64,000 bases of DNA from a virus (lineage: Duplodnaviria; Heunggongvirae; Uroviricota; Caudoviricetes): positions 42,103 through 106,102 of IMG/VR virus record IMGVR_UViG_3300036790_000204. The stretch is one strand, 5' to 3'. Shown piece by piece: positions 2,498 to 51,406 of this stretch (position 1 is its first letter; every line of letters starts with the position of its first letter). The translations under genes and the position numbers were made by a program. Under the pieces are notes generated by a model, which saw nothing but the letters and a program-made list of their open reading frames with translations, ran no database searches and was not told the origin of the DNA.

Positions 2498-5400
2498 TGC
2501 TCATCAAGGCGGTACGCCGCGACGAGCACGGCGTCAGGCGGGTGGTGGCGTCGTGGAACCCGGACAGGCACCCGCGTGACCGGCACGGCCGGTTCATCAC
2601 GACCGGCCATGAGGTGCACCTGGCCGACGGGTCGACCGGGACAGTGGTGCGGGCGGTCGGCTCGAGCAGCATCGAGGTGCGCCACGCCGACGGGCACCTG
2701 CAGCGGGTCGCGGCGAACACGGTGTCCGTCACCGCGCCGAACGCCGCGGGCGCCCTCGAGGGGATCCGGTTCCCCGCGAACCGGAAACTGACCGTGACCC
2801 ACGGGCCCGGCGACACCCCTGTCATCGGGCACGTCACCAGCCACCGCGACCACCTCGCCGTCCAGCCGGCCCGCGGCGGCCCGGCCGTCTACATACCGCA
2901 CAGCTCCGTGAACCGCATCATGGAGAACCCCGGCCGCGACGGTCGCCCCGGCGCAGTCCGCTACGTGCGCCCCGGCTGGAATCCCGGCCGGCACGCCGAA
3001 CGGGACACGGCCGCGCAGGTCGACCAGGTCAGCGCCCGCGACCTGCAGCCCGGCGACCACGCGATGGTCCCGCACCCGCTGACCGGCGAACCCGCGCCGG
3101 GCACGATCGTCGACAAGCGGCTCGACGGCGACACCATCGAGCTTGACGTGCGCCGCGCCGACGGGTCGGTCGACACCGCGGCGATGGACCGCGACGCCGC
3201 CGTCGACAAGATCACCGGCGCCGGCGCCCCGGATGACTTCCCCGACGAGACCGACACGACCCCCGCCCCGGCCGCGCTCCCACCCGTCGCGGTGAAGCCG
3301 CTCCCAGCGGGCACCACGGTCGCACGGCCGGTGCTCTACACCTACCAGCGCCGGAAGATCACCGCCCTGAACCTCGACCGCGACCGGACACTGCCCGAAG
3401 ACCTCCGGCAGGCCGCCGCGCGGATCAGGCAGCGGCAGCCCCTGTCAGCCGGGCAGTCCGCGGCGCTCTCGGCCGAGCTCCGCGAACGCGCCCAAGCCCA
3501 TCCGTCGCCCGTGCAGACCCGGTCGCTCGAGCGCGCCGCATGGCGGCTCGACGCCGCCGCGGCCGAAGCCCACGGCCAGGTCATCCCCGAGCCCGGCATC
3601 GTCCCCGACCGGGCGGCCGAGGTCATGCCCGACGGCATCACCGAAGGCGACAGCATCGTCCTACCGGGCCCCGACGGCACCCTGACGGCGATGAAGGTCC
3701 GCGGGATCACCAGCATGATGGGCGGCCGGGTCCGCGTCCTCGACGTCGAGCACGACGACGGCACCATCGAGCAGCGCACCATCACCGGCCGCACCCGCGC
3801 GTGGCTGCTGCCCGACCGGCCCGACGACGAGCCCGTTGCCGCGCCCGGCCCGCGGCTCGAGCACATCACCCCCGACCAGCTGCGCCCAGGCGACACGATC
3901 CGCGTCAGCGAGGACCACGACGCCGACACCGACCAGGTGACCGGCGTCGAGCCGCTGGAACCCGGCGAGGCGCGGATCACCCTGGCCAGCGGCCAGACGC
4001 AGCTCTCCCAGTCCTACGACGGCGGCCCGAGCATCGTCCGCACCGCCCGCGGCGACGCCAGCGCCGGCCAGCCGTGGGACAGTCTCATGGCCGCCGAGCA
4101 CCCCGAGACCGGCGTCGGGCCGGCCGAGATCAGGGTCGGAGACCGGATCATCCACGGCACCGGCGCCTACGCCGTCACCGGCGCCGTCGTGGAGGCCGAC
4201 CCGCTCGACATCCCGGGCGCGAAAGAGCTGACGATCCGCGAAGACAACTCGTCCAACACCACCGTGCGGCTCTACCCCGGCGACACCGTGACGCGTCTCG
4301 TCAAGGCCGACGACAACGCAGCCGCGCGCATCGAGGAGGAGAAGCGGCGTCGGCTGGCCGACGCCGCGGTCAGCAGGATCAACTACGCGATCAGCGGCCT
4401 GCTGCAGGCCAGCCGCGACCGCGACCTGCGCATGGCGGGGAACTTCTACGGCCAGAGCCACGACGATCTAGCCGCCTCGATCAGCGCGATCCCGGCCGAA
4501 CGCGCGCTCGCCCGCATGGATTCCCACATCCGCATCCTGCAGAACGCGCTGATGCCGCCCGACGGCACACCCGAGACCGAGAGCGCGGCGGCGGAGGCTG
4601 CGCGTCGTCTCCTGCCCGCGATCGGCGAGCTGGCCGAACGGCAGCGCGCCGACGTGATCGCCTCCTTTAAGAACGCCGAGGACGGAATCGACCCGGCCGC
4701 GCTTGCCGACCGTCACGCGAGGGCCGACCCCGCCGGGCTGCTCGCGAGCGCCCGGTCGCGCGTCATGCGGCAGTGGCACGACACGCCGCCGCCGACCCCG
4801 TCAATGGCGGCCACCCGGGCGATCGCCGAGGCAGCCGCCGCGGTCAGGGGAACCGCCGTCGCCCCAGACGCAGCCGGCGACATCCCGAAGCCGCTCCCCG
4901 ACGGCGGCGCCCTGGCCGCCAGGATCCGCGCCTACCGGGCGCAGCTCCCCGCCGACGCCGCCGGGATCGGCAGGCAGTCCGTCACCCGCGCCGTGTTCGC
5001 GACCCCCCGCCTCGAAGACCTCGAGGCGGGTAAAGCGCCGGCGGTCGAGCTCGCCCAGGTGACCACGCCCGACCGCGCCCCGGACGGCGGACCCGGGGCG
5101 ATCGCGATGCGCCACCTCGACACCGTCATGGCCGCCGGGCGCGACCTTGACGCCGAACTGCAAGCGCGCATCGCCAAAGCGCCCATCCGGATCGAGACGC
5201 CGGAAGCCAAAGCAGAGCGGGACGAGCTTCGGAAAAAGTCAGTTGAAGCGGGCACAGCCGCTTTCCGCGCCTACCGCGCGTCGATGGACTCGTACGCCAA
5301 GGCGCACGGGTACATGTCCGCCATGATGCTGGAGCGGCAAGGGACGTCGGCGCAGTTGGCCGAGGCGCGCGAGCAGGCCACCAAAATCCGGGCCGAACGA

Positions 5401-6437: not shown

Positions 6438-6729
6438 CCTGCGGCACCCTCCGCTCATCACCGCCGCGCTGTGGCCGCTCGACCTCAACTATGACCGGGG
6501 CATCGAGTGCGCTGCCTGCGGTGATGTCATCCTCATGGCGGACGGCGACGCCCCTTTCAGGTTCACCCCGGCCGCGCTGCTCGACGCCCTGACTGAGCAC
6601 GCCTGCGAGCGGAACACCGCGACGTTAGGCGCCGCCGGCGGCGACGCTAGCGCACATGCCGTCAGCCCGCGCCCGTTTCCGCGCCGTCCCACGGGCCGAG
6701 CCCGCGCAGGCGCCTGCCGCGGGCGATGA
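6427..6729 (+). CDS. hypothetical protein
   Basis: 100-aa ORF with overlapping stop and start. Confidence 0.25.
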   Translation: MSTDLRHPPLITAALWPLDLNYDRGIECAACGDVILMADGDAPFRFTPAALLDALTEHACERNTATLGAAGGDASAHAVSPRPFPRRPTGRARAGACRGR

Positions 6730-7411
6730 AGCCGACTGGCCGCACCCGCGGACCGGCGAGACCTGGCACGGCACCGTGACCGGCGTTTCGGGTGACGGGG
6801 CGCAGGTGGCGTGGCATTCCTACACCCGGCCCGGCGCCGACAAGACACTGCGGCCGATGCGGCACGCCAGCGCCGTGCCCGCGGCCGAGCTCAGCCGCCG
6901 GCCGGCCGGCCGCCCGGCCGAACGGAAAAGCGGCTACACCGGCCTGACTTCCCAGTCGGGCATGATCTCGCTCGACGTGCCGCCAGGCATCATGACCCCG
7001 GTGCCGGGCGGCGTGGACGAGCCGCCGCACGTCACCGTCGTGTACCTCGGCAAGAACCTCACAGACGACGCATGGGAGCAAGCGTGCGCGCGCGCCTCGC
7101 AGGCCGCCACCACGGCGCCGGGTCCGGTTGACGGGACGATCGGCGGACTCGGCGTGTTCCCGCCTGACGAGACCGGCAGCATGCCCGTGTTCGCCCACGC
7201 GCAGATCCCGGACGCGCACCCGATCCGCAAGCAGCTCGAGGACTTGTCGGCCTCGCAGCACCGTGAATGGCATCCGCACGTGACGATGACGTTCGCCAGC
7301 CCGGGCGACGTGCTGCCCGCCGCCCCGGATCCGACTCCCGTCACGTTCACCCACCTGTCCGCGCACCGCGGCGACGAGGTGCGCCGGTTCAAGCTCGGCG
7401 GCGGCCGGTGA
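6656..7411 (+). CDS. 2H phosphoesterase (LigT / Acb1-like 2',5' RNA ligase or cyclic-nucleotide phosphodiesterase family)
   Basis: Two H-x-T-x motifs (PHVTVVY and HPHVTMTF) about 80 aa apart. The core domain may start at the ATG near 6962 (150 aa), or at 6857. Confidence 0.6.
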   Translation: MPSARARFRAVPRAEPAQAPAAGDEADWPHPRTGETWHGTVTGVSGDGAQVAWHSYTRPGADKTLRPMRHASAVPAAELSRRPAGRPAERKSGYTGLTSQSGMISLDVPPGIMTPVPGGVDEPPHVTVVYLGKNLTDDAWEQACARASQAATTAPGPVDGTIGGLGVFPPDETGSMPVFAHAQIPDAHPIRKQLEDLSASQHREWHPHVTMTFASPGDVLPAAPDPTPVTFTHLSAHRGDEVRRFKLGGGR

Positions 7412-7460
7412 CCAGCCGGCCGGCCACCCGCAAGCCCGACACAGGAAGGCACCACGACCG

Positions 7461-8309
7461 ATGAGCGACATCACCAGCACCCTGCAGGGACTCGGAGACG
7501 GCACGGTGACCACCGATCAGGCGACGGCAATGTTCGCGGCCCGGCAGTGGCCGGTGCGCCTCGCCCACCAGCCGCCGGCGCTGCCCGGCGACGACCTCGC
7601 CGAAGACGTCGCGGACGGCTCGTTCGGCGAGGTGCAGGCCGCCTACGCCGCCGGGTGGATCACCGACGAGCAGTACGCGCAGCTAGCCCAGGCCGCCGCG
7701 TCCGCAGGCGCCGTGACCGGCTTCGGGGGCGGCGACGGGCAGCAGGATGACCTGTTCGCCCCCGAGATGAAGGGAATCCCCCTCGCGAAGGGCTCGTATT
7801 GCGGGATGCCGGGCGGCGGCCGCGGCCGCATCACCGAGGTAGTGACCGAGGGGCAGGCGAAGGGCAGCGACGGCACCACCGCCGACAGCCCGGCCGCGGT
7901 GGTCGCGGTCTGGGAAAAGGGCGACGACGGCTGGTCCGCGACCGGGAAGACAACCGCGGTGAAGCTGTCGGCGCTGAAGGACATGCCGCCGCCGCGCCCG
8001 CTCGCAGGCGCCGGCGGCGAGTCCAAGGCGGCCGGGATACTCGAGGCACTCACCGGCCACGAGCTGCGCACCAGCGGGCAGCCGCCGTGGGCGCGCCCCG
8101 CGGCGTCCGCGGTCACCGCCGTGTACGAGCGCGGGACGGCCGCCTACCCGGGCGAGTCGAAGGCACTCATGCCCGCGCACGACTGGGCGATGGGCCGCGT
8201 CGGCGCGTTCCTCGGCCTCGCGGCCGGCGAGCAGACCGCCGGGTACGCCCGCGACCATGACCTGCTCCCCGAAGGCCACCCGGCCCGCGCCGGGACATGG
8301 GACGCCTGA
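7461..8309 (+). CDS. hypothetical protein
   Basis: 282-aa ORF with coding-like composition. Confidence 0.35.
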   Translation: MSDITSTLQGLGDGTVTTDQATAMFAARQWPVRLAHQPPALPGDDLAEDVADGSFGEVQAAYAAGWITDEQYAQLAQAAASAGAVTGFGGGDGQQDDLFAPEMKGIPLAKGSYCGMPGGGRGRITEVVTEGQAKGSDGTTADSPAAVVAVWEKGDDGWSATGKTTAVKLSALKDMPPPRPLAGAGGESKAAGILEALTGHELRTSGQPPWARPAASAVTAVYERGTAAYPGESKALMPAHDWAMGRVGAFLGLAAGEQTAGYARDHDLLPEGHPARAGTWDA

Positions 8310-12729: not shown

Positions 12730-12819
12730 GCACGCCGGGCGCCAGGGAAGCGCGCGACCTTAGCCGGGCGGCCGGCCTACCGTCCCCCCCGACGGGCTAG
12801 GCGTTCTACGGGGGCAGGC

Positions 12820-15800
12820 GTGGCGGGTAACACGGGCGAGGCGCGGACCGGCATCCCGGAGGGCCTCGAGTGGAAGGGCATAGGGTCGGGCAACGGCGGT
12901 CTGCTCGCCGCTGACGAGGCGACCGGCATCGTTGAGGCGATCGTCTCCGTGACCGGCATCGTGGATGAGGTCAAGGACATCATCGAGCCCGGCGCCTACG
13001 CGGAAACGCTGAGGCAGCGGACCCCCAAGGGCATCTCAGGCCACGACTGGGGGAAGCTCGCGGCCAAGACGCTCGACATCAAGGAGCTGCTGCCGGGCGA
13101 CCCGGCCCTGCCGAGGGAGACGCCGGACGGCAAGCCGTGGCCCGCCGCGGCGGGCGCCCTGTGGGTTAAGGCGCAGTACAACCTTGCCACCCAGATCGGC
13201 CGGGACTGCTTCGCGAACATCCAGTTTTTCGGGCCCGAGACGCAGTGGAGCATCGGATACGACGTCCCGGCCGGCAAGAGCGTAAGAGGACGGGACGGCA
13301 CCAGGCGCATCAAGGGCCTGCGGCTGTTCGAGTACTCCGACGTGCTGTTCGGGGCGGCGCCGCTCACCGGCACCCTGTCCGCGAAAGACGCGAAGCCGTC
13401 CGACGGCGACCCCGATAACGACCTCAACTCGTGGACGACCGACGACCCCGAGGACGCGATCACCCAGGAAGCCGACGCCGACGACCCCGACATGGCCGCG
13501 CTGCACGCCGCGGCGATCTCGGAGATGAACGCTCAGGCGCAGGGCTGGGACGCGATCGACGCCGCGAGCGCGATCAACGCCGGCGAGGAGGAGATCACCG
13601 ACGCGACCGCCGATGATCTGCAGGCCGCCGACCAGCGCCGCCAGGGCGCGACCGCGACGGCCGGGACCAAGGCGGCGGGGGGCGCCACCACGACGCCGGC
13701 CGGCGTGAGCGACACCCCGTGGTCGGACTTCACGGCGGCCGACTACACGCCGGCGCAGTGGCACAAGGCATGCCTGATCCACAACCACGCCCCGGGTGAG
13801 GTCCCCGACGAAAAAGGCGAGTGCCTCGCGCCGTGGACCCCGGTCCTGACTGCACGCGGCTGGCTCCGGGCGGACATGGTGAAGACGGGCGACTCCGTGC
13901 TCACCGCTGAAAAGACCTGGCGGCAAGTGACGCAATGCCACGTGCGCCACTATGCCGGCCCGCTGATGGGGGCAGGGGCAACCTGGCTCACGCCCACGCA
14001 CCCGGTCCTTACGTCAAACGGCTGGCTGCCCTTCGGGGCTGTCGATGCCGCTCAGGACGCCGTTTATGTGCTCCGCGAGATCCCTGACGCTCAGGGATTT
14101 GATGAACTTCTCATCAAGGCGCAGGAGGCGGTAGCCGCGCTTCTCGGCGAAGATCGCGAACTTGCGGTCGCGCTCGACACGTTCGGGCAGCGAATGCCAG
14201 TAGGTTCCGTCGGCCTCAATGGCAAGGGAGTAGGCCGGAACCCAAGCATCGGGGACGTAGCGTCCCATGGTCTTTTGCTTGACGTACTCGACACCAAGGA
14301 GATCGAGCGCGGCGTAGACCGCGACTTCGATGCTCGTCGGGTACTGGATAGCGTGGGTCCGAACGCGGTAGGTGGCACTGCAGCTCTGGGAGCAGAACTT
14401 CTTGCGCTCGGCGAGCGCGGGGATAACGTCGATGTCGACGCCGCATTCGAGGCACTGCCGTACCTCGCTGATCTTCGGACGCCCAAGCGGACGACTCGGG
14501 CCGTAGCAGGCGCTGGAGCAGAAGATGCGCTCGCGGTCGCCCCATGCCAGGGTCATCTCAGTGCCGCAGCCGGGGCAGCTCTTGATGACGGGGGCATGGA
14601 CGCCGCGTTTGCGCCAGACCAAGGCGCTCATGCACGTCTTGGAGCAGGTGCGCGCGTAGGTGCCCGTCACGCGGGCACCACAGACCTCGCAAGCCTTGAG
14701 ATTGGGCTTGGCCGACCCCTTTGCTCGGACTCTGCTGTAACGGCAGTCGGTGGAGCAGTAGACACGCTCCGACCCCACGGCGACCGTGAAGGCACCGCCG
14801 CAGGCGGCGCAAGTCTTGGATATCTCTCGCGAGACCCCTTTGGGACCGCGCCCGCGCTTGTCCCAGGCGAGGCGCACGGTACAGGCGCGCGAACAGGTCT
14901 TGCCCCACATGCCGTTAAAGCAGCGGCTTATGAAATCGGCACCGCAGACGACACAAGTGAAATCGCGTTCCGGCATGATGGAATTATATCCATTGGCTAT
15001 GACGGGCCGGTTTACAACTACGAAGTCGAAACCGACCATTCGTATTTTGCCGGTATTCTCGCCGTCCACAACTGCAAGCTGCCAGTGCGCCAGCCGGACG
15101 GCCGCGTCAACGTCAACGGCGTCCACGCCGCCGCCGGGGTTCTCGCCGGCGCCCGCGGCGGGGTGAACGCGACTGCGGGGCAGAAGCGGATTGCGGCCGC
15201 GCAGCTCCGAGGCCTGTACCGGAAGATCGGCGACACCCCGCCGTCGTCCCTGCAGGCGAAGGTGCTTACCTCGGCCGACGTGACCGGCACCCCGCCGACC
15301 GGGCCGTCGGGCCCGATCCAGCTCCGCGCCCGCCTCGACGGATGGGCCGGGGGCGACCCGGCCGACTACTCGACCGCGCAGTGGCACGACGCGACCCTGA
15401 TCCACAACCACCCCGACGGGATGATGCCGACGGACAAGGGCGACTGCTCGCTGCCCGTGTGCACCCCCGACGGGGCGCTGTCGTCGCAGGGGATGCACGC
15501 CGCCGCGGGGGCGCTCGGCAGCGGCGACCTCGACGCGACCGACGACCAGAAAACGCAGGCCGCCACGGCGCTGCTCATGCTGTTTCGCCGCACCGGTGAG
15601 GCTCCCCCCCCGATTCAGGTCAAGGTCGCCGGGCAGGACGTCACCCCGGCCGACGCGCGCGCCACCCAGCGGCTCAAAGACTGGTACGTGCACGGCGGCG
15701 GCGCCGCGCAGATCGGGTGGGGCGTCGCCGGCGACTTCGACAAGTGCGTTGCGATCGCCGGGAAGCACATGGACCCCGCGAAGGCTAAGGGGTACTGCCA

Positions 15801-17120: not shown

Positions 17121-17216
17121 CGCGACGCTACCCGCGTGCCCCTGCTAAATCATCCGTTAGCGCGTGTCGTCCCGGCAGTGGCCGGGCGGACGGCAGACCA
17201 GTCCGACACCCCCGGT
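17121..17216 (+). promoter_or_regulatory. bipartite conserved upstream element (cgcGACGCTAcCC ... GTCCGACACCCCCGG) before the capsid gene
   Basis: Shared with sites before genes at 26567, 43048 and 45627. Partial copies lie before 12820, 21868, 22595 and 37112. Confidence 0.45.
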
Positions 17217-17227
17217 CGTGAGCAGTC

Positions 17228-18568
17228 ATGCCCGGGAGGGGCAACATGCCGAACACCGTAGACCGCGCCCGAATCCGCGAGCTCACCAGCCAGCTCCAGA
17301 CCAAGGCCACCGAGCTCGACCGGCTCGCCGACACCTGGCAGGACGAGACCGGCAACGGGCACCTCGTCATCAGCACCGAGCAGAAGGACGCCTACCAGCG
17401 GGTCCTCGGCGAGGCCGAGGAGATCAAGACCCTGCTGCGTTTCGAGGAAGGCCGCGGGCAGCTCCACGAGTTCCTCAGCGCCCCCGCGGGCAGCCCGCTC
17501 GCCGCGTCGGAGGCCGCCGCGATGGGCGTCGGCTACTCGCAGAAGTCGCTCGGCCAGATGTACATCGAGAGCGCCCAGTACGGGGAGCTCAAGCAGGGCG
17601 GCTTCGACATCCGCCGGCTTCCCGGCGCGTTCGAGAGCGGCATGGGCATCGCCCAGCTCGAGCGCAAGGACGTCTATTCCAACATGGCGGGCAACATCGC
17701 CATCCCGGCGCTCGGTACCCCGCAGAACGTCGGCCTCACCCCGCGGCAGCTGCGCCCCGGCCGGGTGCGTGACCTGTTCCCGCAGGACACCACGACCGCG
17801 AACATGCTCTACGGCATCCGCGAGACCGGGTTCACCAACAACGCCGCCCCGGTCGAGGAGCGCGTCGCGGCGAACGGCGGCCCCGCCACCGGCGGCGCGA
17901 CCGACGTGTACAGCACCAAGCCGCACTCGAACATCAGCATCGTCCCCGTGCAGTACCCGGTCAGCACGATCGCCCACTGGATCAACGTCCACAAGAACAC
18001 CCTCGCCGACGAGCCCCGCATGATGGGCCTGATCGACCGTGACCTCATGGACGGCGTGAAGCTGGCCGAGGACTGGCAGATCATGTACGGCGACGGCCAG
18101 GGCGACCACATCACCGGCATCTGCAACACGCCCGGCCTGCAGGAGTACGCCGGAAGCACCATCTCCGACGACCCGCAGACCGCGCAGATCCGCCGGGCGA
18201 TCACCCGCGTGTTCCTGGCCTACTACCAAGCCAGCGGCGTGGTCGTCCACCCGATGGACTGGGAGTCCCTCGAGCTCGAGCGCGACAATTACGGGCAGTA
18301 CCGGCTCGCGATCTCGGTCGCGATGGGCGCCCAGAAGGTCGTCTGGCGGCTCGACGTCGCCGAGACGGTCGCGATCGCGCAGGGCACGTTCCTGACCGGC
18401 GCGTTCGGGCTCGGCGCGAAGCTGTACGACCGGCAGGCCGTCTCGGTGGCCGTGAGCACGGAGAACGGCTCGAACTTCATCCAGAACGTCTGCACCGTTT
18501 TGGCTGAGGAAAGGGTCGCCCTAGAAGTGTCCCGGCCGGAGTCTTTCGTGCTGGGAACCTTCGCCTAG
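17228..18568 (+). CDS. major capsid protein (HK97 fold)
   Basis: Follows the protease. N-terminal coiled-coil delta-like region. Alternative ATG at 17246 with a GGAGG RBS. The conserved upstream motif lies before it, and strong hairpins follow it. Confidence 0.7.
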   Translation: MPGRGNMPNTVDRARIRELTSQLQTKATELDRLADTWQDETGNGHLVISTEQKDAYQRVLGEAEEIKTLLRFEEGRGQLHEFLSAPAGSPLAASEAAAMGVGYSQKSLGQMYIESAQYGELKQGGFDIRRLPGAFESGMGIAQLERKDVYSNMAGNIAIPALGTPQNVGLTPRQLRPGRVRDLFPQDTTTANMLYGIRETGFTNNAAPVEERVAANGGPATGGATDVYSTKPHSNISIVPVQYPVSTIAHWINVHKNTLADEPRMMGLIDRDLMDGVKLAEDWQIMYGDGQGDHITGICNTPGLQEYAGSTISDDPQTAQIRRAITRVFLAYYQASGVVVHPMDWESLELERDNYGQYRLAISVAMGAQKVVWRLDVAETVAIAQGTFLTGAFGLGAKLYDRQAVSVAVSTENGSNFIQNVCTVLAEERVALEVSRPESFVLGTFA

Positions 18569-18578
18569 CATCTTCACA

Positions 18579-18690
18579 GTGCGTCTGCGTTTACGCACTG
18601 AACTGGTACGATTAAGGGACGCCGACAGTGTGTCGGCGTCCCTTAAGTACATAAAAGTGGCCTGGCAGCCGTTACAGCGGCTGCCAGGCC
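18579..18690. terminator. three consecutive stem-loops after the capsid gene (8-bp, 16-bp and 13-bp stems)
   Basis: cagtgcgt..acgcactg. ttaagggacgccgaca-gtg-tgtcggcgtcccttaa. ggcctggcagccg-ttacag-cggctgccaggcc. No U-tract is visible. Confidence 0.4.
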
Positions 18691-18712
18691 GTCAACCTGT
18701 TCGGAGGCTGAC

Positions 18713-19906
18713 ATGCCAGAGGGTACCTGTCCGTGCGGTAAAGCAGCGGAGGTCGGCCCGCAATGCCGGACCTGCTATCAGCGGGACTATCGCGAGCGGA
18801 AGAAGAACGGCGAGGCGGCGATCACCCAACCCGGGATCGTCGTGGTGTGCGTGCGCGACGGCTGCGGTACTAGCGTCCGCATCACGGGCGCGCGGCGGCG
18901 CAAGTACGAAGAGAACGGCACCGGGGCCTACTGCGGTAATGAGTGCTACATGGCCGACACCCACGTCGAAGTCAAATGCGCCGGCTGTGGGGCACCGCTT
19001 CAGAGGTACAAGAAGCAGGTAGAGGCCAGCAAGACCGGCCACTTCGTCTGCGAGGGATGCCGCACCACGGTCGGCTGCAAGCCGAGGCGCGGGCAAGAGC
19101 ACACCTGCACCGGATGCGGGACCACGTTCTACCGCCGTCCCGGCGATGACAATCCGCGCTTCCACTCGCGCAGATGCCGCCAGCAGTATGAGCGGGCACA
19201 GCGCGTCACAGTCACTTGCGAAGGCTGCGGGATCGATTTCGAGGTCATCAAGGCCATCGCCGAGCGCAGGCGCTTCCACAATCGCGCCTGCAAGAACCTT
19301 GCGCTCACAACCAACCGGGTGCCCGGCCAGTGGCACAACGGGAAGCCTAAGCGGTCCGGGAGCGGCAACGCAGCCGAGTACATCATGATCTGGGAGCCAG
19401 ATCACCCGAAAGCGTTTCAGGGCGGCTGGATCCTAGAGCACCGCTGGGTCGTGGAGCAGCAGATAGGCCGGTACCTCGAGAAAAGCGAGCAGGTCGACCA
19501 CATCAATCAGGTCAAGAACGACAACCGGCCGGAAAACCTGCGGGTGCTAGACCCGCGCGCGCACCAGCTTGTCACTGCCGCTAATGCGAAGGTTAACCGC
19601 GCCGCCGAGCGCGCCGAACTGAAAAGGTACCGGGAGATATTTGGCTCGGCGGCCGAGGCGGCAGAGGCCGCGCTACGGATAGGCGGCCATCGGCCGGTCG
19701 GCGAACTGCTAGATGAAGCACGATCGATTTTCGTGGAGGCAGCCGCTGCCGCGCCCGAGAAGATGGGCGACGGGCAACTGATGGTGCTGCGACAGTTCCT
19801 CGCCCAGCACGGCACCCGTGCCGAGCGGAAGCGGTACGCAGCGCTTTCCCCGGTGGTCACCGGGTCGCCAGCGGCGGAAGGTGAGACCAAGGACGTGCTG
19901 TTCTAG
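18713..19906 (+). CDS. HNH homing endonuclease with N-terminal zinc-ribbon repeat array
   Basis: HNH core EHRWVVEQQIGRYLEKSEQVDHINQVKNDNRPENLRVL. Four C..C....C..C ribbons. GGAGG RBS. Confidence 0.75.
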   Translation: MPEGTCPCGKAAEVGPQCRTCYQRDYRERKKNGEAAITQPGIVVVCVRDGCGTSVRITGARRRKYEENGTGAYCGNECYMADTHVEVKCAGCGAPLQRYKKQVEASKTGHFVCEGCRTTVGCKPRRGQEHTCTGCGTTFYRRPGDDNPRFHSRRCRQQYERAQRVTVTCEGCGIDFEVIKAIAERRRFHNRACKNLALTTNRVPGQWHNGKPKRSGSGNAAEYIMIWEPDHPKAFQGGWILEHRWVVEQQIGRYLEKSEQVDHINQVKNDNRPENLRVLDPRAHQLVTAANAKVNRAAERAELKRYREIFGSAAEAAEAALRIGGHRPVGELLDEARSIFVEAAAAAPEKMGDGQLMVLRQFLAQHGTRAERKRYAALSPVVTGSPAAEGETKDVLF

Positions 19907-19945: not shown

Positions 19946-20260
19946 CTACGTGGGGCGGCGCTCGCCGTTTCCCCTGCGGCGCTGGCCGGGCTTCGGCACG
20001 CCGATGACGGTGCGGCGTATCCGGTCGAGCTCGAGCAGCGCCCACGTTCCGTCGTCGGTGGCGGCGAGGCGTCCGATCGCGGCGCCGGTGCGGGGCTGGC
20101 TGGTGAGGTGCCACAGCCCGCAGCCTGGTTTGCACTCGTACGGGTGCAGCGGCCGGGGGTGGTGCTCGGCGATGATCTCGGCGCCCGTGACGGCGCTGGT
20201 GATGTCGGGGTATGCCCCTTTGGCCGGCGTGGGGCAGTGGTCCCTGTCCGGCGTCGTCAT
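19946..20260 (-). CDS. hypothetical protein (reverse-oriented)
   Basis: Part of ORF 19946..20368. ATG MTTPDRDH. Confidence 0.3.
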   Translation of the reverse strand: MTTPDRDHCPTPAKGAYPDITSAVTGAEIIAEHHPRPLHPYECKPGCGLWHLTSQPRTGAAIGRLAATDDGTWALLELDRIRRTVIGVPKPGQRRRGNGERRPT

Positions 20261-20317
20261 GCACGCAACGTAGCCGGGCGCCGGGCGTAGGGACACGGAC
20301 AGCCACAAGTGATGCGT

Positions 20318-20892: not shown

Positions 20893-21803
20893 GCGCGTAT
20901 AAGCCAGACTTGTCGCTGCCGACGTTCTACCTCGGCACCCACCGCCCCAACTGGCTGTGGGACGGGTCGATGCCCTTCCCGCTCATGGCGTCCGACCGGA
21001 CACTCCGCGAGGTGGTCAACCTGCGCCCGGCCACCGCGCCCGAATGGTCGCTCGACTCGGGCGGCTTCACGGAGCTTTCCTCCTACGGCCGGTGGACCGT
21101 CAGCCCGCGAGAGTACGTCGAGCGCGTAGCCCGCTACGACCGCGAGATCGGCGGACTGGCGTGGGCCGCGCCGCAGGACTGGATGTGCGAGCCCGCGATC
21201 ATCAGCGGCGGCCGCGTCAGCACCACCGTGACCGCGCCGGGCACCGGCCTGTCGGTCGCCGGGCACCAGCGGCGCACCGTCGCGAACTACCTCGAGCTGA
21301 CCGCGCTGTGGGGGCAATACAGCGATACAGAAAGCCCGTTCATCCCCGTGCTGCAGGGCTATAAGGCGGCCGACTACGAGGCGTGCCACGCGCTGTACGG
21401 GGCGGCTGGCGTCGACCTCGGCGCGGTCCCGCTGGTGGGAGTCGGGTCGGTGTGCCGCCGTCAGGCAGAAACGGAAATCCGCGACATCGTGTCCGTGGTC
21501 GCCGCGATGCCACTCGTGTCGCACTGGTTCGGCATGAAGCTGACCGGCATCCGGCTCGCTGGCGTCCGCACCGGTGAGATCTGGGAGAATGGCGAACTGA
21601 CCGAGAACGGCCCGGCGTCGCTTGACTCGCTCGCATGGTCGTACGAAGCGCGCCGCTCGGCCCGGCTGTCCGACTGCACCCACAGGGCGCAGAAGTGCTC
21701 AGGCTGCCGTGTGTGGGCGACTGCATGGCGGGACAAGGCGATCAAGGCGCTGCGCGACGCCGCCACCGCACCGGTTCAGGACATGCTGCCTTTCGCCGCC
21801 TAG
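20889..21803 (+). CDS. TGT/DpdA-like transglycosylase (candidate 7-deazaguanine DNA-modification enzyme)
   Basis: LDSGGF motif (compare TGT LTDSGGFQ). C-terminal C-x6-C-x2-C cluster. About 300 aa, like phage DpdA. Confidence 0.4.
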   Translation: MSAYKPDLSLPTFYLGTHRPNWLWDGSMPFPLMASDRTLREVVNLRPATAPEWSLDSGGFTELSSYGRWTVSPREYVERVARYDREIGGLAWAAPQDWMCEPAIISGGRVSTTVTAPGTGLSVAGHQRRTVANYLELTALWGQYSDTESPFIPVLQGYKAADYEACHALYGAAGVDLGAVPLVGVGSVCRRQAETEIRDIVSVVAAMPLVSHWFGMKLTGIRLAGVRTGEIWENGELTENGPASLDSLAWSYEARRSARLSDCTHRAQKCSGCRVWATAWRDKAIKALRDAATAPVQDMLPFAA

Positions 21804-21867
21804 GCACCCTGCAGCCCGCGACGCTACCCGCACGCGTCGCTAGCCTCCCTCATCAGCACACCAGCAC

Positions 21868-22440: not shown

Positions 22441-22594
22441 CGCGAAGAACCCGCGCCGCCCCACCCTGGCGGCGCGCTCAGACGGGCGCGGTCAGCTGGT
22501 GTTTTCACGGGGGTGGGCGCCGGCTGACCGCGCTCTTTATCGTTATCGCAGAGTCCGTCGGCGGGACGCTAAGCGACGCCCGGGCCGATGATCG

Positions 22595-23751: not shown

Positions 23752-24356
23752 TGGCCGGGTCGGACATCAACGCGGACCTCGAGATCGCGGTTGCCAGCGG
23801 GCCGCTGCGCGGGCTGATCGACCGGTTCGGCGCCGAGCTCGAGCTGGCCGCGCAGAAGGAAGCGCCCCCGGCCCGCATATGGCGCACCGTCGGCGACGAG
23901 AGGGTCCGCGAGACGCACCGCCAGGCCGACGGGCAGGCCATCCCGACCAACCTCAAGTTCATCCTGAACAAGCCCGAGCGCGGTCCGACGGCGCGCGGGC
24001 AGGCCGAGCGGGCGGCGCACCACGCCGAGGGGCACGGCGGCGGCAGCTCGGGCGACATCCTGGCCAAGCCGGAGTCTTACGGGACGGAGTCGGCCCGCTA
24101 CCCGCGCGACGAAACTCTCAGTCCGGGCAACCGTTACAACTGTCGTTGTCACGATGAAACGGACACGGAGATGATCGCGCGGACCGTCCACGCCGACCCG
24201 TCGACAGTGCAGGGCACCCGCGTGAGCGTCACCGTGTCAACCCGCTTCCCGCGCGCCGCCGAGTCCGAGTTCGGCGACGGCGACGGATCGCCCGGCCTGC
24301 GGTGGATGGGCCGCGCCCTCAACGAGACCAGCGCGAAACTCGCCGGCAGCCCGTGA
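23751..24356 (+). CDS. MuF-like (SPP1 gp7 family) minor capsid domain protein
   Basis: ERVRETHRQADGQ and NCRCH, hallmarks of the Phage_Mu_F domain. ATGA-coupled start. Confidence 0.5.
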   Translation: MAGSDINADLEIAVASGPLRGLIDRFGAELELAAQKEAPPARIWRTVGDERVRETHRQADGQAIPTNLKFILNKPERGPTARGQAERAAHHAEGHGGGSSGDILAKPESYGTESARYPRDETLSPGNRYNCRCHDETDTEMIARTVHADPSTVQGTRVSVTVSTRFPRAAESEFGDGDGSPGLRWMGRALNETSAKLAGSP

Positions 24357-24414
24357 CGCAAACCAGCCGCGCCCGCGATGCTCGACCCCACCGACCCGGA
24401 AGGCAGGTGCCCGC

Positions 24415-26261: not shown

Positions 26262-26527
26262 CCGATCCGGGCCGCGTCCGCGTCCGCGTTGTGAGCTACA
26301 GCTTGTCCGAGTTCGTCGCCAGCTATCTAGGCGACCTCCCAGACCTCCGGCTCGCCGACGAACTGAAGGCGATAGACGAGCAGGCGCGGGTGCACGCGGG
26401 GCGGTGGCCGACACCGCGCGCCGAGATCCCGCCCGCGTTCCGCCGCAGGCCGCCCGCTGCGGCCGCACCGTGCCCGGCCGGCGTCTGCCAGCGCGTGACG
26501 CTAGCCGGAACCCGGTCCTACCTTTAG
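26258..26527 (+). CDS. hypothetical protein
   Basis: 89-aa ORF. Confidence 0.25.
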   Translation: MTDPGRVRVRVVSYSLSEFVASYLGDLPDLRLADELKAIDEQARVHAGRWPTPRAEIPPAFRRRPPAAAAPCPAGVCQRVTLAGTRSYL

Positions 26528-26550
26528 GCCGTCCGACACCCCCGGTCAGC
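26491..26550 (+). promoter_or_regulatory. conserved upstream element before the major tail gene
   Basis: gcgtGACGCTAgCCgg...CCTACCTTTAGGCCGTCCGACACCCCCGGTCAGCAC. Its 36 bp are identical to the copy at 43005..43040. Confidence 0.45.
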
Positions 26551-26566
26551 ACGTGGGGGCTGGGCA

Positions 26567-27145
26567 ATGACTAATCCTGCGGCGATCCTTGTCCCAGGTA
26601 TGGCGCGAGTGTGGCTCGCGCCCGTGGGGACCACCGCCCCGGCGGACCCGGTGACCGACATGCCGGACGGGTGGCTTGACGTCGGCTACTTCGACCCCGC
26701 GTCGCTGCAGTGGCAGACGTCGCCGAGCTTCCAGACCGTCACCTCGCACCAGTCGGCCTACCCGACGCGCCGGTTCGTCGACTCCGACGCGGCGACCGTG
26801 ACGTGCAACCTGCAGGAATGGAACGCGATCAACCTGCAGACGGTCTACGGCGGCGGCGAGATCACCACCATGCACGGCACGGCCCCGGAGCCGACGACCT
26901 GGTACAAGTACGAGCCGCCGGCGATCACCGACCGCACGCAGACCGCGTGCTGCATCGAGATCATCGACGGCTCGAAGCACTACCGGCAGATCATCCCGAT
27001 CACCGAGCAGGACTCCGGGGCGACGGTCAGCTACCACCGCACCGCCGAGTCGACGCTGCCCCTGTCCCTCGCGGTCATCGGGACGGACGTCGGAGACCCC
27101 TGGTATTCGCTTTCGGACGACCCGGCAATGGCTCCAGTGTCCTGA
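26567..27145 (+). CDS. major tail protein
   Basis: 192 aa. Sits upstream of the chaperone and tape-measure genes and is preceded by the conserved upstream motif. Confidence 0.55.
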   Translation: MTNPAAILVPGMARVWLAPVGTTAPADPVTDMPDGWLDVGYFDPASLQWQTSPSFQTVTSHQSAYPTRRFVDSDAATVTCNLQEWNAINLQTVYGGGEITTMHGTAPEPTTWYKYEPPAITDRTQTACCIEIIDGSKHYRQIIPITEQDSGATVSYHRTAESTLPLSLAVIGTDVGDPWYSLSDDPAMAPVS

Positions 27146-27173: not shown

Positions 27174-28466
27174 ATGGCCGTACCCCCGAAGCCAATCCTC
27201 GCGTCCCTGACCGCCGAGCAGGCAGCTCACGCTCTGGCCATGCTCGACCAGCTGACGGACCGGTCATCCGGCCCGGACGAGTGCTGGCCGTGGACGGGCG
27301 GATCGCTCGTTGGCGGCTACGGCGTGCTCTACACGCTGGGCACCGCGAAAACTCGCCGCATGGTCAAAGCTCACCGGCTGGCGTATGAGATCGCCCACGA
27401 CGGCGAATGTCCGCCTACGATCGACCACACCTGCCACGACGGCGCCGAATGCAAACTTGCCAGCCTGTGCCCGCATCGCCGTTGCTGCAACCCGGCGCAC
27501 CTCAAGGCGGAAACCGCCGCCGGCAACGCGTCTCGCGCTCAGGCGGGTATCTACGAGGAAACGTGCCGCGCCGGGCATCGAATGAACGGCGATAACGCCT
27601 ATGAAGCGCCAGACGGCTCGCGATACTGCCGCAAGTGCGCGGCGGCTCGCGCCCGCAATGCCAGGAGCGACGCCAAGCGGGGCCGCGAAAAAGCGGCAAC
27701 CGAGATTCAGCGCCCGCGAGGGCTTCCAGCCGCCGAGGCGGTGGCATGGGCGCTGGATGGCCAAGACTCGCAGGGCTGCATGCGGTGGCCCGGCTCGACG
27801 CCAAACGGGAGCGGCTACGTCTACGTTGGGGTAGGCGGCAAGACGATCGCGGCACACCGGCTTGTATACGCCGTTCGCGTCGCCCCCATACCAGACGGCT
27901 ACATGGTGGACCACACGTGCCACGACCCGAAGATATGCCCTGGCGGGATGGAGTGCGCGCATCGCGCGTGCATCAACCCGGAGCACCTCACTGCCGTCAC
28001 GCACGCGGAGAATTCATCGGTGCCCCGTTCGGTGCGGCGCAGGCCCGACGAGTGCATCGCCGGCCACCTGTTCACCGAGGAAAACACTTACACCGACAAG
28101 CAGGGATCACGGCACTGCCTAGCCTGCCAGCGAGACCACGCGCAAGCGGCCGCAGGGAAGGCCAGAGAATCATCCGGCTGGACGGATGCCCGGTTCCGGG
28201 ACGGGAATCTGTGTAGGAACGGCCACGACGTGACCGTGACCGGGCTTAACGCAGAAGGTAAGTGCGCCGAGTGCAGCCGGACGCGAAAGCGAGAATGGAA
28301 GGCGCGGGAGGCCGCCAAGCCCAAGCCGGATCGGGTTGACAAGCGCAAGCGGCAGGGGGATCTGTGCGGCAACGGGCTGCACGACGTGACGGTGACCGGG
28401 CTGACCAAGGCTGGCCGGTGCGCCGAGTGCAAGCGCGCCAGCCAGCGCCTGGCGCCTGTTAGCTAA
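27174..28466 (+). CDS. homing endonuclease with tandem HNH domains and C-terminal zinc ribbons
   Basis: Two copies of CWPW(T)G..GYG....HR..Y....G......DH.C....C.NP.HL, plus several CxxC ribbons. Confidence 0.7.
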   Translation: MAVPPKPILASLTAEQAAHALAMLDQLTDRSSGPDECWPWTGGSLVGGYGVLYTLGTAKTRRMVKAHRLAYEIAHDGECPPTIDHTCHDGAECKLASLCPHRRCCNPAHLKAETAAGNASRAQAGIYEETCRAGHRMNGDNAYEAPDGSRYCRKCAAARARNARSDAKRGREKAATEIQRPRGLPAAEAVAWALDGQDSQGCMRWPGSTPNGSGYVYVGVGGKTIAAHRLVYAVRVAPIPDGYMVDHTCHDPKICPGGMECAHRACINPEHLTAVTHAENSSVPRSVRRRPDECIAGHLFTEENTYTDKQGSRHCLACQRDHAQAAAGKARESSGWTDARFRDGNLCRNGHDVTVTGLNAEGKCAECSRTRKREWKAREAAKPKPDRVDKRKRQGDLCGNGLHDVTVTGLTKAGRCAECKRASQRLAPVS

Positions 28467-28849: not shown

Positions 28850-28976
28850 GAGTGCTCCATTCTCGGTCGAGAGACAGTCCGCGGGAGAATCTAGCTGCCG
28901 TGGCGCACAGCGAGCAGGTGAACGCGGATCGTGAGACCGCGACGTTAGCGGACCGCCGCCCCTACGTTGCCCGGCT

Positions 28977-29836: not shown

Positions 29837-29943
29837 CCGGCGCCCCGGACACGGCGACCTAAGCGGCGGCCGGCCCGTACTTTCAAGCCACGCATTCACC
29901 CCCGTGAGCGCGAGCGCGCGCGTGAACGGGGGAGGGCCGGGCG

Positions 29944-37070: not shown

Positions 37071-37111
37071 GGGCGCGACGCTAGGCGCCCGGCCGGCCTA
37101 CGGTCCGGCGC

Positions 37112-40094: not shown

Positions 40095-40960
40095 CGCCAG
40101 GCGCACAGCCCGCGACGTTAGCCGAATGCCGGTGCGACTCTCGCCGCATGACGGCCATCCCCACCAAGATGTTCGACTCGGACAACCCGGCGACGCTGCC
40201 CCCGTGGGACGGGGAATGCGCGTACGCCGGGTATGTCGACGAATCGGATGACTACAGCGCGATCCGGGCTGCGTACCCGGGGGCGGTGGTGCTGTCGATC
40301 ACCGGGCACGGCGCGGACGCCGACATCGCCGACATCGAGACCCGTCTCATGGCCGACGCGGACGCCCCGGGCTGGTTCGAACGGCAGATCGCCCGCGGCC
40401 TCGCCCGGCCGATGCTGTACCGGCAGGCGTCGTCGGCGCAGGGGCTGATCGACGTCATGACGGCCGCGGGGATCGGCCGGCCCCGCTACTGCCTCTGGAC
40501 GGCGCACTACGACGAGCGGCTGGGCGAGCACATCTGCGGACCGGATACCTGCGGCTACCCGCAGGCCGACGGCACGCAGTGGACTAGCGCCGCGCTCGGC
40601 CGGAGTCTCGACCAGTCCATGCTCGGCCCGTCGTTCTTCGCAGTCACGGTCGCACCGACCCCGCAGCAGCAGGAGGCAGACGTGTACTCAGGCACCCTCG
40701 GCATGAAGGCGGCCAGCGTCCCGGTGGCGCCGGGCACCGTCGGCAAGGTCAGCGTCTACGCCGATTTCACCAGCGCGGCCGAGCCGCTCGAGGTCCGCGT
40801 CGCCGTCCACTCGGCCGCCAAGGGCTACCGGGTGGTCAAGCTCGTGCTGGACGACAGCAAGCCGCATCTGGTCGACCTGACCGAGGCCGACGTCGACGCG
40901 GTGTCGTTCCTCCGCGAGGACAAGGACGGCGGCCGCACCGCCGGCTACGTCATCTACTAG
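40091..40960 (+). CDS. putative hydrolase / lysin-like protein (uncertain)
   Basis: 289 aa. Position is next to small membrane proteins. No firm motif. Confidence 0.25.
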   Translation: MTPGAQPATLAECRCDSRRMTAIPTKMFDSDNPATLPPWDGECAYAGYVDESDDYSAIRAAYPGAVVLSITGHGADADIADIETRLMADADAPGWFERQIARGLARPMLYRQASSAQGLIDVMTAAGIGRPRYCLWTAHYDERLGEHICGPDTCGYPQADGTQWTSAALGRSLDQSMLGPSFFAVTVAPTPQQQEADVYSGTLGMKAASVPVAPGTVGKVSVYADFTSAAEPLEVRVAVHSAAKGYRVVKLVLDDSKPHLVDLTEADVDAVSFLREDKDGGRTAGYVIY

Positions 40961-41757: not shown

Positions 41758-42014
41758 CCGACGGCACCCCGGCCGACGTGACAACGGAGGCGGAACGGGT
41801 GATAACCGCCGCGCAGGCCCTTCCCGATCTAGGAACGATCAAAGAGCTTGCCGAGGAGGCCATCCGCCATGGGCCGGTCGACCACATGAGCCGGGAGCAG
41901 GTTCAGGAGCTGGCCAAGCGGGCCGTCGCCCAGGCCGAGCAGCTCGCCGCTCTCCTGCAGCAGCTTTCCGGGCTGCTCGGCGCCGGCGACACCCCCGGCG
42001 GGGTGACCCCGTGA
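41754..42014 (+). CDS. hypothetical protein
   Basis: 86 aa. Confidence 0.3.
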   Translation: MTDGTPADVTTEAERVITAAQALPDLGTIKELAEEAIRHGPVDHMSREQVQELAKRAVAQAEQLAALLQQLSGLLGAGDTPGGVTP

Positions 42015-42128
42015 GCAGGGAAAAGGAAATAGCCGACGTCACCGCCGAGGCAGACGCCCTGCTCGGCAAGCTACGCGCCAACGTCGCCGCCCTCAACGCC
42101 ATCCTCGCAACAGACCCGGAGGTCACTG

Positions 42129-42980: not shown

Positions 42981-43040
42981 CGGGTGACGCTACCCGGGCG
43001 GGCTGCCTACCTTTAGGCCGTCCGACACCCCCGGTCAGCA
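42981..43040 (+). promoter_or_regulatory. conserved upstream element before tailspike 1
   Basis: gggtGACGCTAcCCggg...CCTACCTTTAGGCCGTCCGACACCCCCGGTCAGCAC. Confidence 0.45.
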
Positions 43041-43047
43041 CTGGGAG

Positions 43048-45549: not shown

Positions 45550-45604
45550 CGGGTGACGCTCCCTAGCGGAGTTGCCTAGTATTCGGGCTGTCCGACACCC
45601 CCGG
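45550..45604 (+). promoter_or_regulatory. conserved upstream element before tailspike 2
   Basis: gggtGACGCTcCCtag...GTCCGACACCCCCGG. Confidence 0.4.
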
Positions 45605-45626
45605 AAACCTGGGGACGGCCGCCGCG

Positions 45627-51169: not shown

Positions 51170-51406
51170 TCACGCCGTCCCGGTCGCCCCGGCCGCCGCC
51201 GCCAGGGCCTTCCCGTAGGCCAGGGCGTTCCGCTCGCTCGGCACCCGCTGCCCGGTTTCCCACGCGCTGACCGCGGCGCGGGTGACCTTGGCCGCCCGGG
51301 CGACCTCGGCCGCCGAGACCCCGGCCGCCTCGCGGCGCCGTCGCGCCTCGCCCGAACGCAGCTCGGCCCGGATCCGGGCGATGGCGGCGAGATCGGCGGG
51401 GCGCAC
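51170..51406 (-). CDS. HTH XRE-family regulator (Cro/repressor-like)
   Basis: C-terminal 78 aa of ORF 51170..51760: GVSAAEVARAAKVTRAAVSAWETGQRVPS. GTG start near 51406. Its upstream region is lower-GC. Confidence 0.45.
   Translation of the reverse strand: MRPADLAAIARIRAELRSGEARRRREAAGVSAAEVARAAKVTRAAVSAWETGQRVPSERNALAYGKALAAAAGATGTA

Follow-up and report, generated by a model that had tools for sequence, protein, structure and literature searches.

In front of the major capsid gene of a tailed phage (Caudoviricetes; IMG/VR record IMGVR_UViG_3300036790_000204, positions 42,103 to 106,102), two short conserved motifs, box A and box B, lie at positions 17121–17216 of the stretch of 64,000 nucleotides (nt) that was analysed as a whole and is called the window here. 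The same pair recurs before three other virion genes. An earlier note on this DNA took the pair for one bipartite element, either a late promoter or activator site or an RNA element of the 5' untranslated region, belonging to the four most highly expressed late genes. The locus therefore raises the question of whether the two boxes form one element or two, and at which level each of them would work.

The analysis points to two separable modules, a repeated promoter and a shared messenger RNA (mRNA) leader, and a probability of about 0.75 is given to this reading. Both older suggestions survive in part, the promoter for box A together with a downstream hexamer and the RNA leader for box B, whereas the single bipartite element does not. 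Nor is the promoter specific to four genes, as it has at least 13 copies in the window, five of them apparently leaderless.

A probable repeated promoter in the virion gene block

Box A is located at 17122, 26495, 42984 and 45553, one copy upstream of each box B. Its presence at all four places had been seen correctly, but the consensus then proposed is left at two positions by the fourth copy (GTGACGCTCCCT). Eighteen nt after the box A hexamer G(C/T)GACG, the four sites carry TAAATC, TACCTT, TACCTT and TAGTAT, respectively, which gives a consensus architecture of box A hexamer, 18 nt and a TAnnnT −10 hexamer. Judged by this layout, box A, (AGnnC)G(C/T)GACG(C/T)TA, is probably the upstream part of a sigma-70-type promoter. 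Before the capsid gene, box A (GCGACGCTACCC, 17122–17133, + strand) occupies the −35 region and is also present upstream of the capsid genes of relatives; the −10-like TAAATC (17146–17151, +), 18 nt after GCGACG, is imperfect with a C at position 6, and its orthologues read TAnCGT. The other three promoters, likewise on the + strand and with 12 nt between the two parts, are GTGACGCTAGCC and TACCTT for the major tail gene (26495–26524), GTGACGCTACCC and TACCTT for tailspike 1 (42984–43013), and GTGACGCTCCCT and TAGTAT for tailspike 2 (45553–45582). What had been described as an optional left part of box B (CCTACCTTTAGGCC, the "extended box B" with CCTACCTT as its left part) turned out to be the −10 hexamer TACCTT plus the discriminator.

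A promoter pattern (NNGAC[CG][CT][AT]ANNN, 11–13 nt, [TG]ANNNT, which allows spacers of 17–19 nt) matched the window 11 times on the + strand and never on the − strand, compared with 1.0 match on both strands together, and a maximum of 3 in 100 simulations, under a first-order Markov null. A chance origin of the pattern is excluded. The spacer is exactly 18 nt in 10 of the 11 matches, though 17–19 nt were allowed. A2 and T6 of the −10 hexamer are required by the search pattern itself, and what is tested is how often they accompany box A at a fixed spacing (11 versus about 1). With the near-misses at 17122 and 45553 added, the window holds at least 13 box A promoters, every one on the + strand before a + strand gene, and A2 and T6 occur together in 12 of 13. 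A position weight matrix scan was over-fitted to 12 sites and was used solely to show the absence of further sites. The hexamer G(C/T)GACG agrees with TTGACA at three to four of six positions, GAC being invariant, and the three box B promoters close to their predicted transcription start have GTGACG, which is nearer to TTGACA than the GCGACG found elsewhere.

All of these promoters are intergenic or touch just the last 4 nt of a gene, with at most 15% of the window free of called genes. Occurrence in coding regions or before early genes, named beforehand as what would speak against a regulatory element, was looked for: the sole coding overlap consists of the last 4 nt of one gene, and the promoter class is absent from the − strand block (53–64 kb) and from the next 10 kb.

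Degenerate copies had already been listed before the genes at 12820, 37112, 21868 and 22595, and these share the box A architecture; sites that had escaped that list stand before the genes at 6656, 24415, 28977, 29944 and 40148. All lie on the + strand. GCGACCTTAGCC..TACCGT (12754–12783) precedes the gene for a protease fusion of 1282 amino acids (aa), whose leader begins with CCCCCCCG and has a GGGGG Shine-Dalgarno (SD) sequence. GCGACGCTACCC..TAGCCT (21818–21846) has a 17-nt spacer, GTGACGCAAACC..GATGCT (24353–24382) is found before gene 24415, and GCGACCTAAGCG..TACTTT (29854–29883) before the tape measure gene, in whose leader CACCCCCG is predicted to pair with CGGGGGAG.

At the five remaining sites, the start codon follows the hexamer after 6–8 nt: GCGACGTTAGGC..GACGCT, which lacks a box B (6619–6648; ATG 6656, 7 nt), GGGACGCTAAGC..GATGAT before the head-tail adaptor gene (22563–22592; ATG 22601, 8 nt), GCGACGTTAGCG..TACGTT (28939–28968; ATG 28977, 8 nt), GCGACGCTAGGC..TACGGT (37075–37104; ATG 37112, 7 nt) and GCGACGTTAGCC..GACTCT (40112–40141; ATG 40148, 6 nt). 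Because of this short distance, leaderless mRNAs are implied at these promoters; such mRNAs are common in Actinobacteria. Transcription would start 6–8 nt after the −10 hexamer, and at least 13 promoters of this kind would divide the virion gene block into many short units, five of them leaderless. Internal promoters would indeed be necessary, as HNH endonuclease genes and small − strand genes interrupt the block. One of these − strand genes (19946–20260) has a predicted leaderless-type promoter of its own on the opposite strand inside the virion block (20267–20296, −), consisting of GTGTCCCTACGC, 12 nt and TACGTT, with the ATG 6 nt later.

A simple sigma-70 consensus scanner did not flag the box A promoters, since their hexamers are too far from TTGACA and TATAAT, and this carries no weight against them. 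A reading as promoters of extracytoplasmic function (ECF) sigma factors was rejected, since GAC and the CGT of the downstream hexamer are about 22 nt apart, where ECF promoters have 16–18 nt. A pseudo-palindrome, in which box A would resemble the reverse complement of the −10 region, was also rejected as a general feature, as only two of the 13 sites score on the opposite strand, and weakly.

Conservation in relatives, prophages and phage Gilgamesh

Capsid homologues of 42–69% identity were compared together with their flanks, 206 kb of loci in all, and the promoter pattern had 28 matches there on the strand of the genes and a single one on the opposite strand. An orthologous promoter variant, GCGACCTTA, is kept before the protease-fusion gene in four phages (among them L055, L056 and L062). 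Conservation among 73 distinct sites of the close clade extends to positions that the search pattern left free: position −4 is A in 55 sites, position −3 is G in 48 and position +1 is G in 63. This gives box A a length of about 14 nt, and over these sites it reads A-G-n-n-C-G-(C/T)-G-A-C-(G/C)-(C/T)-T-A.

The pattern of a hairpin in the capsid leader, described below, retrieved 17 prophages in genomes of Actinomadura, Nonomuraea and Streptomyces. Their capsid genes have box A upstream, at an unchanged distance to a downstream hexamer. The same capsid promoter and leader were also found in an isolated Streptomyces phage, Gilgamesh, where they are 92% identical to those of one prophage. The Gilgamesh genome contains 26 promoter sites on the + strand versus 2 on the − strand, spread across the virion block and a right-arm block, and many of them have ATG or GTG 7–8 nt after the hexamer. 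The hexamer reads CAnnnT in the Streptomyces group and TAnnnT in the window type, so that A2 and T6 are the positions common to both groups. These are the key −10 bases of sigma-70-family factors.

The promoter family is absent from phiC31. Searches with megablast and blastn against 50,697 phage records left the capsid and major tail modules of the window unmatched, no isolated phage among them carrying these modules. Viral and genome contigs searched for protein patterns of the capsid protein alone gave no match, and a literature search on the motif string or on Gilgamesh found nothing relevant.

Other repeated signals were noticed in the related contigs. L069 has a second repeated promoter type, GCGCTAAATG(A/G)(C/A)TGTAnnnT, after strong terminators (4347–4394, 6531, 7514, 8076–8123 and 12811–12858), and at three of these sites a leader with GGAGCGACACCACCAGGAGGA comes next; the genes after the L069 leaders have no PHROG annotation and no counterpart in the window. 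L053, a relative on an 87.9-kb contig, carries a 19-nt repeat, TTGTACCCTATCTTGACTT, three times (2243, 3136 and 12662), which contains TTGAC and may be an early promoter or operator. In L208, an AT-richer intergenic region about 3 kb past the right end of the window (6780–6990 of L208) has four (A/T)TGTGGC(C/A)T-like repeats that could be an operator or origin-like iterons.

Which factor might read box A

Several observations weigh against a plain sigma-70-type promoter. The capsid hexamer TAAATC has no T at position 6, some of the other hexamers are weak (GACGCT, GACTCT and GATGAT), and the Streptomyces capsid promoters have hexamers of the TTCCAT type, without A at position 2. Box A is also longer than a normal −35 element and is kept across distant phages, which fits a dedicated factor better than the housekeeping sigma. 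Furthermore, Gilgamesh encodes a sigma factor of its own, yet the window has no homologue.

It is possible, though less likely than not, that box A is the site of such a dedicated factor, that is, a phage-encoded or host alternative sigma factor, or an activator overlapping the −35 region, which would provide late timing. This proposal refines the sigma-70 explanation and does not contradict it, with MotA/AsiA appropriation in T4 and class II activators as models. It would account for a conservation reaching well past six positions (to the A of −4, present in 55 of 73 sites, and the YTA triplet) and persisting from Trebonia-type to Streptomyces phages with 34–53% capsid identity. The window phage, temperate to judge from its serine integrase and HTH repressor-like genes, must silence at least 13 virion promoters in the lysogen, the box A class is absent from the − strand early block, and Gilgamesh encodes a sigma factor (gp92). 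However, gp92 has no homologue in the window or the related loci, and no sigma factor and no MotA/AsiA-like or WhiB-like protein was seen among the 40 window proteins scanned, with about 30–40 kb of the phage lying outside the window. No regulator is common to the window phage and Gilgamesh, which share virion proteins and DpdA only. The TAnnnT −10 hexamer, the 18-nt spacer and the TGAC/CGAC core are moreover what the actinobacterial SigA uses, and a sigma-70-type promoter remains the preferred reading of box A.

Box B as a probable transcribed leader

Box B (GTCCGACACCCCCGG) has four exact copies in the whole window, all on the + strand, at 17201, 26531, 43020 and 45590. Copies with one or two mismatches do not occur in the window, and the remaining 11 matches have three mismatches, which is the chance level. 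As the earlier note had stated, the four copies precede the genes of the major capsid protein, the major tail protein and tailspikes 1 and 2, and its assignments agree with the database families: the first two proteins belong to PHROG 10 (PF05065) and PHROG 117 (PF25681), and the other two are paralogous tailspike-like proteins. The gap between box A and box B, given before as 25–45 nt, is really 24–25 nt at three sites and 67 nt at the capsid gene. From the end of box B to the start codon there are 30 nt (capsid), 21 nt (major tail), 13 or 25 nt (tailspike 1) and 22 nt (tailspike 2), with the SD sequence in between. An exact search for box B in IMG/VR gave 52 single matches, none with common flanks, all of them due to chance.

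The capsid copy (17201–17215, +) is placed within the 5' leader and starts 49 nt after the −10 hexamer. The likely true capsid start is ATG 17246, preceded by the G-run SD GGGAGGGG (17234–17248, +); CATGCCCGGGAGGGG at this SD is kept in relatives, and the minimum free energy (MFE) fold pairs the SD with the C-tract of box B. The second copy (26531–26545, +) begins 6 nt after the −10 hexamer, at the predicted +1, and is followed by GGGGG and the major tail ATG 26567 (26555–26569, +). Around the third copy (43020–43034, +), positions 43006–43041 are identical to 26517–26552 over 36 nt; an SD-like GGGAG and two candidate starts, 43048 and 43060, come next (43043–43062, +), so that the true start of tailspike 1 is ambiguous. 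The fourth copy (45590–45604, +) lies 7 nt after the −10 hexamer, is the same as the third at 15 of 15 positions, and precedes GGGGA and the tailspike 2 ATG 45627 (45611–45629, +). A partial copy, CGACACCCCCGG (12 of 15; 41984–41998), lies inside the 3' end of a coding region and is followed by cGGGG and, 7 nt on, an overlapping GTG start at 42011, with no upstream promoter; it may be a chance match, since it encodes DTPGG.

As its placement suggests, box B is a separate, presumably transcribed leader that can be uncoupled from box A. Before the major tail gene and the two tailspike genes, it starts with a G that is the 7th or 8th nt counted from the −10 hexamer (a gap of 6–7 nt), so that box B would form the first 15 nt of these mRNAs, and it would be internal to a longer, structured leader at the capsid gene. 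Relatives at 64–72% major tail identity have an exact or near-exact box B 6–7 nt after the −10 hexamer of major tail and large tail-fibre genes, each copy then followed by a G-run SD. In L206, the exact GTCCGACACCCCCGG stands before the major tail gene, and GTATGGCACCCCCGG and GAACAGCATCCCCGG before large tail genes of 938 and 1637 aa. L207 has GACCGACACCCCCGG before the major tail gene, the exact GTCCGACACCCCCGG before the gene of an 801-aa protein and GACCGTCACCCCCGG before the next gene, and L205 has GTCGCACACCCCCGC before its major tail gene. From box A to the start codon, these modules measure about 72 nt (70–76). In the capsid leader, box B is found 49 nt after the −10 hexamer, behind the hairpin, in the window as well as in seven close relatives, and all eight leaders keep CACCCCCG(G/T) followed by a G-run SD. 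The three GGAGCGACACCACCAGGAGGA copies of L069 (CGACACCACCAGG, a CGACACC-type leader) directly follow a different promoter type.

The tailspike paralogues allow the boxes to be compared with their surroundings. Upstream of the two genes, box B is identical at 15 of 15 positions and the box A core at 8 of 8, compared with 9 of 16 in the spacer, 3 of 6 in the −10 hexamer and 74% in the N-terminal coding parts. As both boxes are invariant while spacer, −10 hexamer and coding sequence diverge, they are under purifying selection, which makes mere hitch-hiking on a duplicated cassette unlikely.

What box B might do

The explanation of box B that is tentatively favoured, at somewhat less than even odds, is a leader acting at the RNA level, by gating translation or by stabilising the 5' end. 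An action on RNA is suggested because the core CACCCCC resembles the anti-Shine-Dalgarno sequence of 16S ribosomal RNA (CACCUCC) and can pair with the G-run SD 6–18 nt downstream. A duplex of C-tract and SD is possible in 19 of 19 leaders examined (−8.6 to −20.4 kcal/mol), and the two are paired in the MFE fold of each of the four window leaders. The RNAalifold consensus is the same hairpin, with seven pairs, among them G-U pairs, and one change from C-G to U-A. Of 68 genes, 10 have a run of at least five C within 50 nt of the start codon, and the genes with these leaders make up six of the 10. Box B would then form a 5'-proximal hairpin that gates translation initiation, or would protect the 5' end, for the proteins needed most abundantly.

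This explanation has to face a number of adverse results. The short leaders are no more stable than their shuffles (z = −0.1, +0.35 and −0.7), cognate pairs of C-tract and SD are marginally better than non-cognate ones (P = 0.076), and the covariation term of RNAalifold is unfavourable (+0.74; one compensatory pair). In Gilgamesh-type leaders and at 41987, the C-tract is too close to the SD for a hairpin. A stable hairpin sequestering the SD is also counter-intuitive for the most highly expressed genes.

These results leave some room for a DNA-level role, in which a phage repressor or late regulator would use box B as an asymmetric operator or a roadblock at or just after the start sites of the strongest virion promoters, in the manner of cluster A mycobacteriophage stoperators. 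Such a role is unlikely. In its favour are the exactness and asymmetry of the 15-mer and its single orientation with respect to transcription. The invariance at 15 of 15 positions exceeds what a mere hairpin needs, the location from +1 to +15 is typical for repressor sites, the phage encodes two HTH proteins, and neither thermodynamics nor covariation proves the RNA structure. On the other hand, there are four copies only, none of them by the lysogeny or early region or on the − strand, and the 15-mer is kept at 64–72% protein identity, whereas immunity operators usually diverge. The capsid copy is 49 nt away from the −10 hexamer, yet keeps its distance to the SD. Box B is also always accompanied by a complementary G-run SD, including G-U pairs that are sensible only in RNA.

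It is still less probable that box B is an initial-transcribed-sequence element tuning promoter escape or promoter-proximal pausing. Its position at the predicted +1, at a fixed 6–7 nt from the −10 hexamer, in nine sites near the transcription start in four phages would agree with this, but all eight close relatives have the capsid box B at a long distance from the start site, L069 joins a similar leader to a different promoter type, and the conserved core is the 3' half with its SD partner and not +1 to +6. Very improbable, finally, is a functionless hitch-hiker on a promoter cassette spread by recent duplication or gene conversion, comparable to T4-type mobile cassettes, for although sites 2 and 3 share the 36-nt identical stretch, the tailspikes are tandem paralogues and the region is a mosaic in which HNH endonucleases adjoin the capsid and major tail genes, the tailspike flanks have decayed to about 50% identity with box B still at 15 of 15, and its position is kept in L205, L206, L207 and the orthologous capsid leaders.

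A predicted capsid transcription unit

Between promoter and box B, the capsid leader contains a hairpin of its own (17168–17188, +; CG-U-CCCGGC / AGUG / GCCGGG-CG), which is predicted from covariation and is the best-supported RNA structure of this analysis. In an alignment of 17 relatives chosen by their capsid protein, 99.3% of the cells are paired, three pairs show compensatory changes, and the covariation score was reached by none of 500 shuffles. The consensus is CG-U-CCCGG(C/U), a tetraloop NYUG and (G/A)CCGGG-CG. It is located before the capsid genes of uncultured relatives, of the 17 actinomycete prophages and of Gilgamesh, down to 34% capsid identity. In more distant relatives, a pairing of the flank CGAACGGC with GCCGTTCG, located immediately ahead of the SD, is possible. 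A search of the whole window against Rfam, on both strands, gave no match at the gathering score, the capsid-leader hairpin included.

Three very stable, perfect or near-perfect hairpins directly follow the capsid stop codon (18577–18692, +; z = −9.4, a stability that none of 200 shuffles reached). Their probable role is that of a terminator or 3' stabiliser isolating the capsid unit, and because of them the capsid gene looks like a self-contained unit. In one relative (L077), a gene for IS605 OrfB/TnpB (Cas12f-like; 6496–7641) was observed between the protease-fusion and capsid genes.

The phage and other features of the window

The window belongs to a metagenome contig of 65.7 kb. Its major tail protein is identical to one from a metagenome-assembled genome of Trebonia sp. 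(Streptosporangiales; GCA_036490185.1), encoded on the 106-kb contig DASXEI010000513.1. As the 106-kb contig extends past the right end of the window, about 30–40 kb of the phage lie outside the analysed sequence. The phage is probably temperate, to judge from a lysogeny-type region with a large serine recombinase, a short tyrosine-integrase-like open reading frame and two HTH_3/HTH_31 proteins (48219–49745, −, and 51714–52340, +, with the HTH proteins at 51170–51406, −, and 54966–55517, −).

HNH endonuclease genes are located right after the capsid and major tail genes (18713–19906 and 27174–28466), and they are possibly homing endonucleases tracking the most conserved virion genes. In L206, an HNH gene likewise directly follows the major tail gene. 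The tailspike-like genes (43048–45549 and 45627–47864) are tandem paralogues with N-terminal parts about 74% identical, each with its own promoter and box B. The 1282-aa protease-fusion gene contains an internal duplication (13736–13824 and 15359–15447; 89 nt, 73% identical) and the tape measure gene a 141-nt tandem repeat (33084–33365).

A DpdA homologue (20910–21803; 7-deazaguanine DNA modification; Pfam E = 1e-80) is also present in Gilgamesh, where it is annotated as queuine tRNA-ribosyltransferase, and in L205. Two other genes code for a Thg1-like protein of the 3'-5' nucleotidyl-adding enzyme family (50186–51004) and a 2H/LigT-like, 2'-5' RNA ligase-like protein with a predicted leaderless box A promoter (6656–7411). 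A link between such RNA-end-modifying genes and the invariant 5' end shared by the mRNAs would be pure speculation.

Significance

Little is understood of how actinobacteriophages regulate their late genes, for which one long operon is usually assumed. The virion module of this phage group appears to be split into short units that share one conserved promoter type and yield leaderless as well as box-B-leadered mRNAs. With the box A motif as a marker, transcription units and gene starts may be located in silico in hundreds of uncultured phages and prophages of actinomycetes, and the promoters and leaders are candidate strong or phage-inducible parts for Streptomyces and rare actinomycetes. Because the cultured S. 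lividans phage Gilgamesh has 26 box A promoters plus the capsid-leader hairpin, the promoter family is directly testable. The main interest lies in a widespread promoter family and an undescribed leader and hairpin, with a cultured phage at hand.

A more far-reaching idea, which is doubtful at present, is a two-layer control of virion genes in widespread temperate actinomycete phages, combining a box A factor with invariant RNA operators. In the first layer, a factor such as a sigma-appropriation-like activator or an alternative sigma would read the 14-nt box A; the second would be the pairing of box B with the SD together with the capsid-leader hairpin CGUCCCGGUGCUGACCGGGCG. A late phage or host protein would open or bind these operators and thereby time and dose the translation of capsid, tail tube and tail-fibre proteins. 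If true, this would cover Trebonia-type, Nonomuraea, Actinomadura and Streptomyces phages including Gilgamesh, a largely uncultured group.

Comparison with known systems

In lambda-type nut sites, boxA (near CGCTCTTTA) and the boxB hairpin are both transcribed downstream of the promoter. This comparison was rejected, as box A of the window lies upstream of its own −10 hexamer and differs in sequence, and box B itself forms no hairpin.

Leader hairpins that sequester the SD or stabilise the 5' end are familiar from Mu mom/Com, T4 late-gene hairpins and the ompA and aprE leaders. The leaders of the window resemble them in an anti-SD-like tract complementary to their own SD and in a predicted hairpin near the mRNA 5' end; they differ in that one invariant sequence is common to several genes and phages.

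The earlier note had been reminded of the start-associated sequences (SAS) of cluster K mycobacteriophages, a resemblance that fails on sequence, distance, copy number and location. The SAS is a 13-mer, GGGATAGGAGCCC, which contains the SD core AGGAG, lies 3–7 bp from the start codon and occurs in 11–19 copies in the non-structural genome half (PMC3203893). Like SAS and the extended SAS, box B is short and asymmetric, has one orientation upstream of starts, is kept among related phages and has a proposed role in translation. Unlike them, it is a C-rich 15-mer with no internal SD, placed upstream of the SD and 13–30 nt from the start codon, in four copies before virion genes and at the predicted mRNA 5' end.

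The stoperators of cluster A mycobacteriophages are bound by the immunity repressor and occur in tens of copies on both genome arms, including the early lytic promoter. Box B shares with these sites, which are also mentioned in the SAS study (PMC3203893), an asymmetric sequence of about 13–15 bp oriented with transcription in short intergenic regions. It differs in having four copies in virion-gene leaders only, with none in 48–64 kb or the next 10 kb.

For box A, middle promoters of T4 and other phage middle or late promoters that depend on an activator offer an architectural analogy only. Those of T4 combine a MotA box with a sigma-70 −10 hexamer and depend on sigma appropriation; box A promoters similarly have a host-type −10 hexamer and a phage-specific box at −35/−30 before many genes. 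In contrast to T4, no MotA/AsiA-like or other activator was found among the window proteins scanned, and box A keeps a −35-like GAC at normal spacing.

A close parallel is seen in Cluster O mycobacteriophages, which have repeated SigA-like promoters with predicted leaderless mRNAs, some with +1 on the first base of the start codon (PMC4351075). There as here, several sigma-70-type promoters per genome are co-oriented with the genes and have a TAnnnT-like −10 hexamer and a spacing of 17–18 nt. The window phage differs in having at least 13 copies in 40 kb of virion module (26 in Gilgamesh) and, in place of TTGACA, a 14-nt box, AGnnCGnGACSYTA, that is conserved across phages of different actinomycete genera. 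By its sequence and layout, the predicted box A promoter is a fresh sequence variant of the known repeated sigma-70-type phage promoters with leaderless starts.

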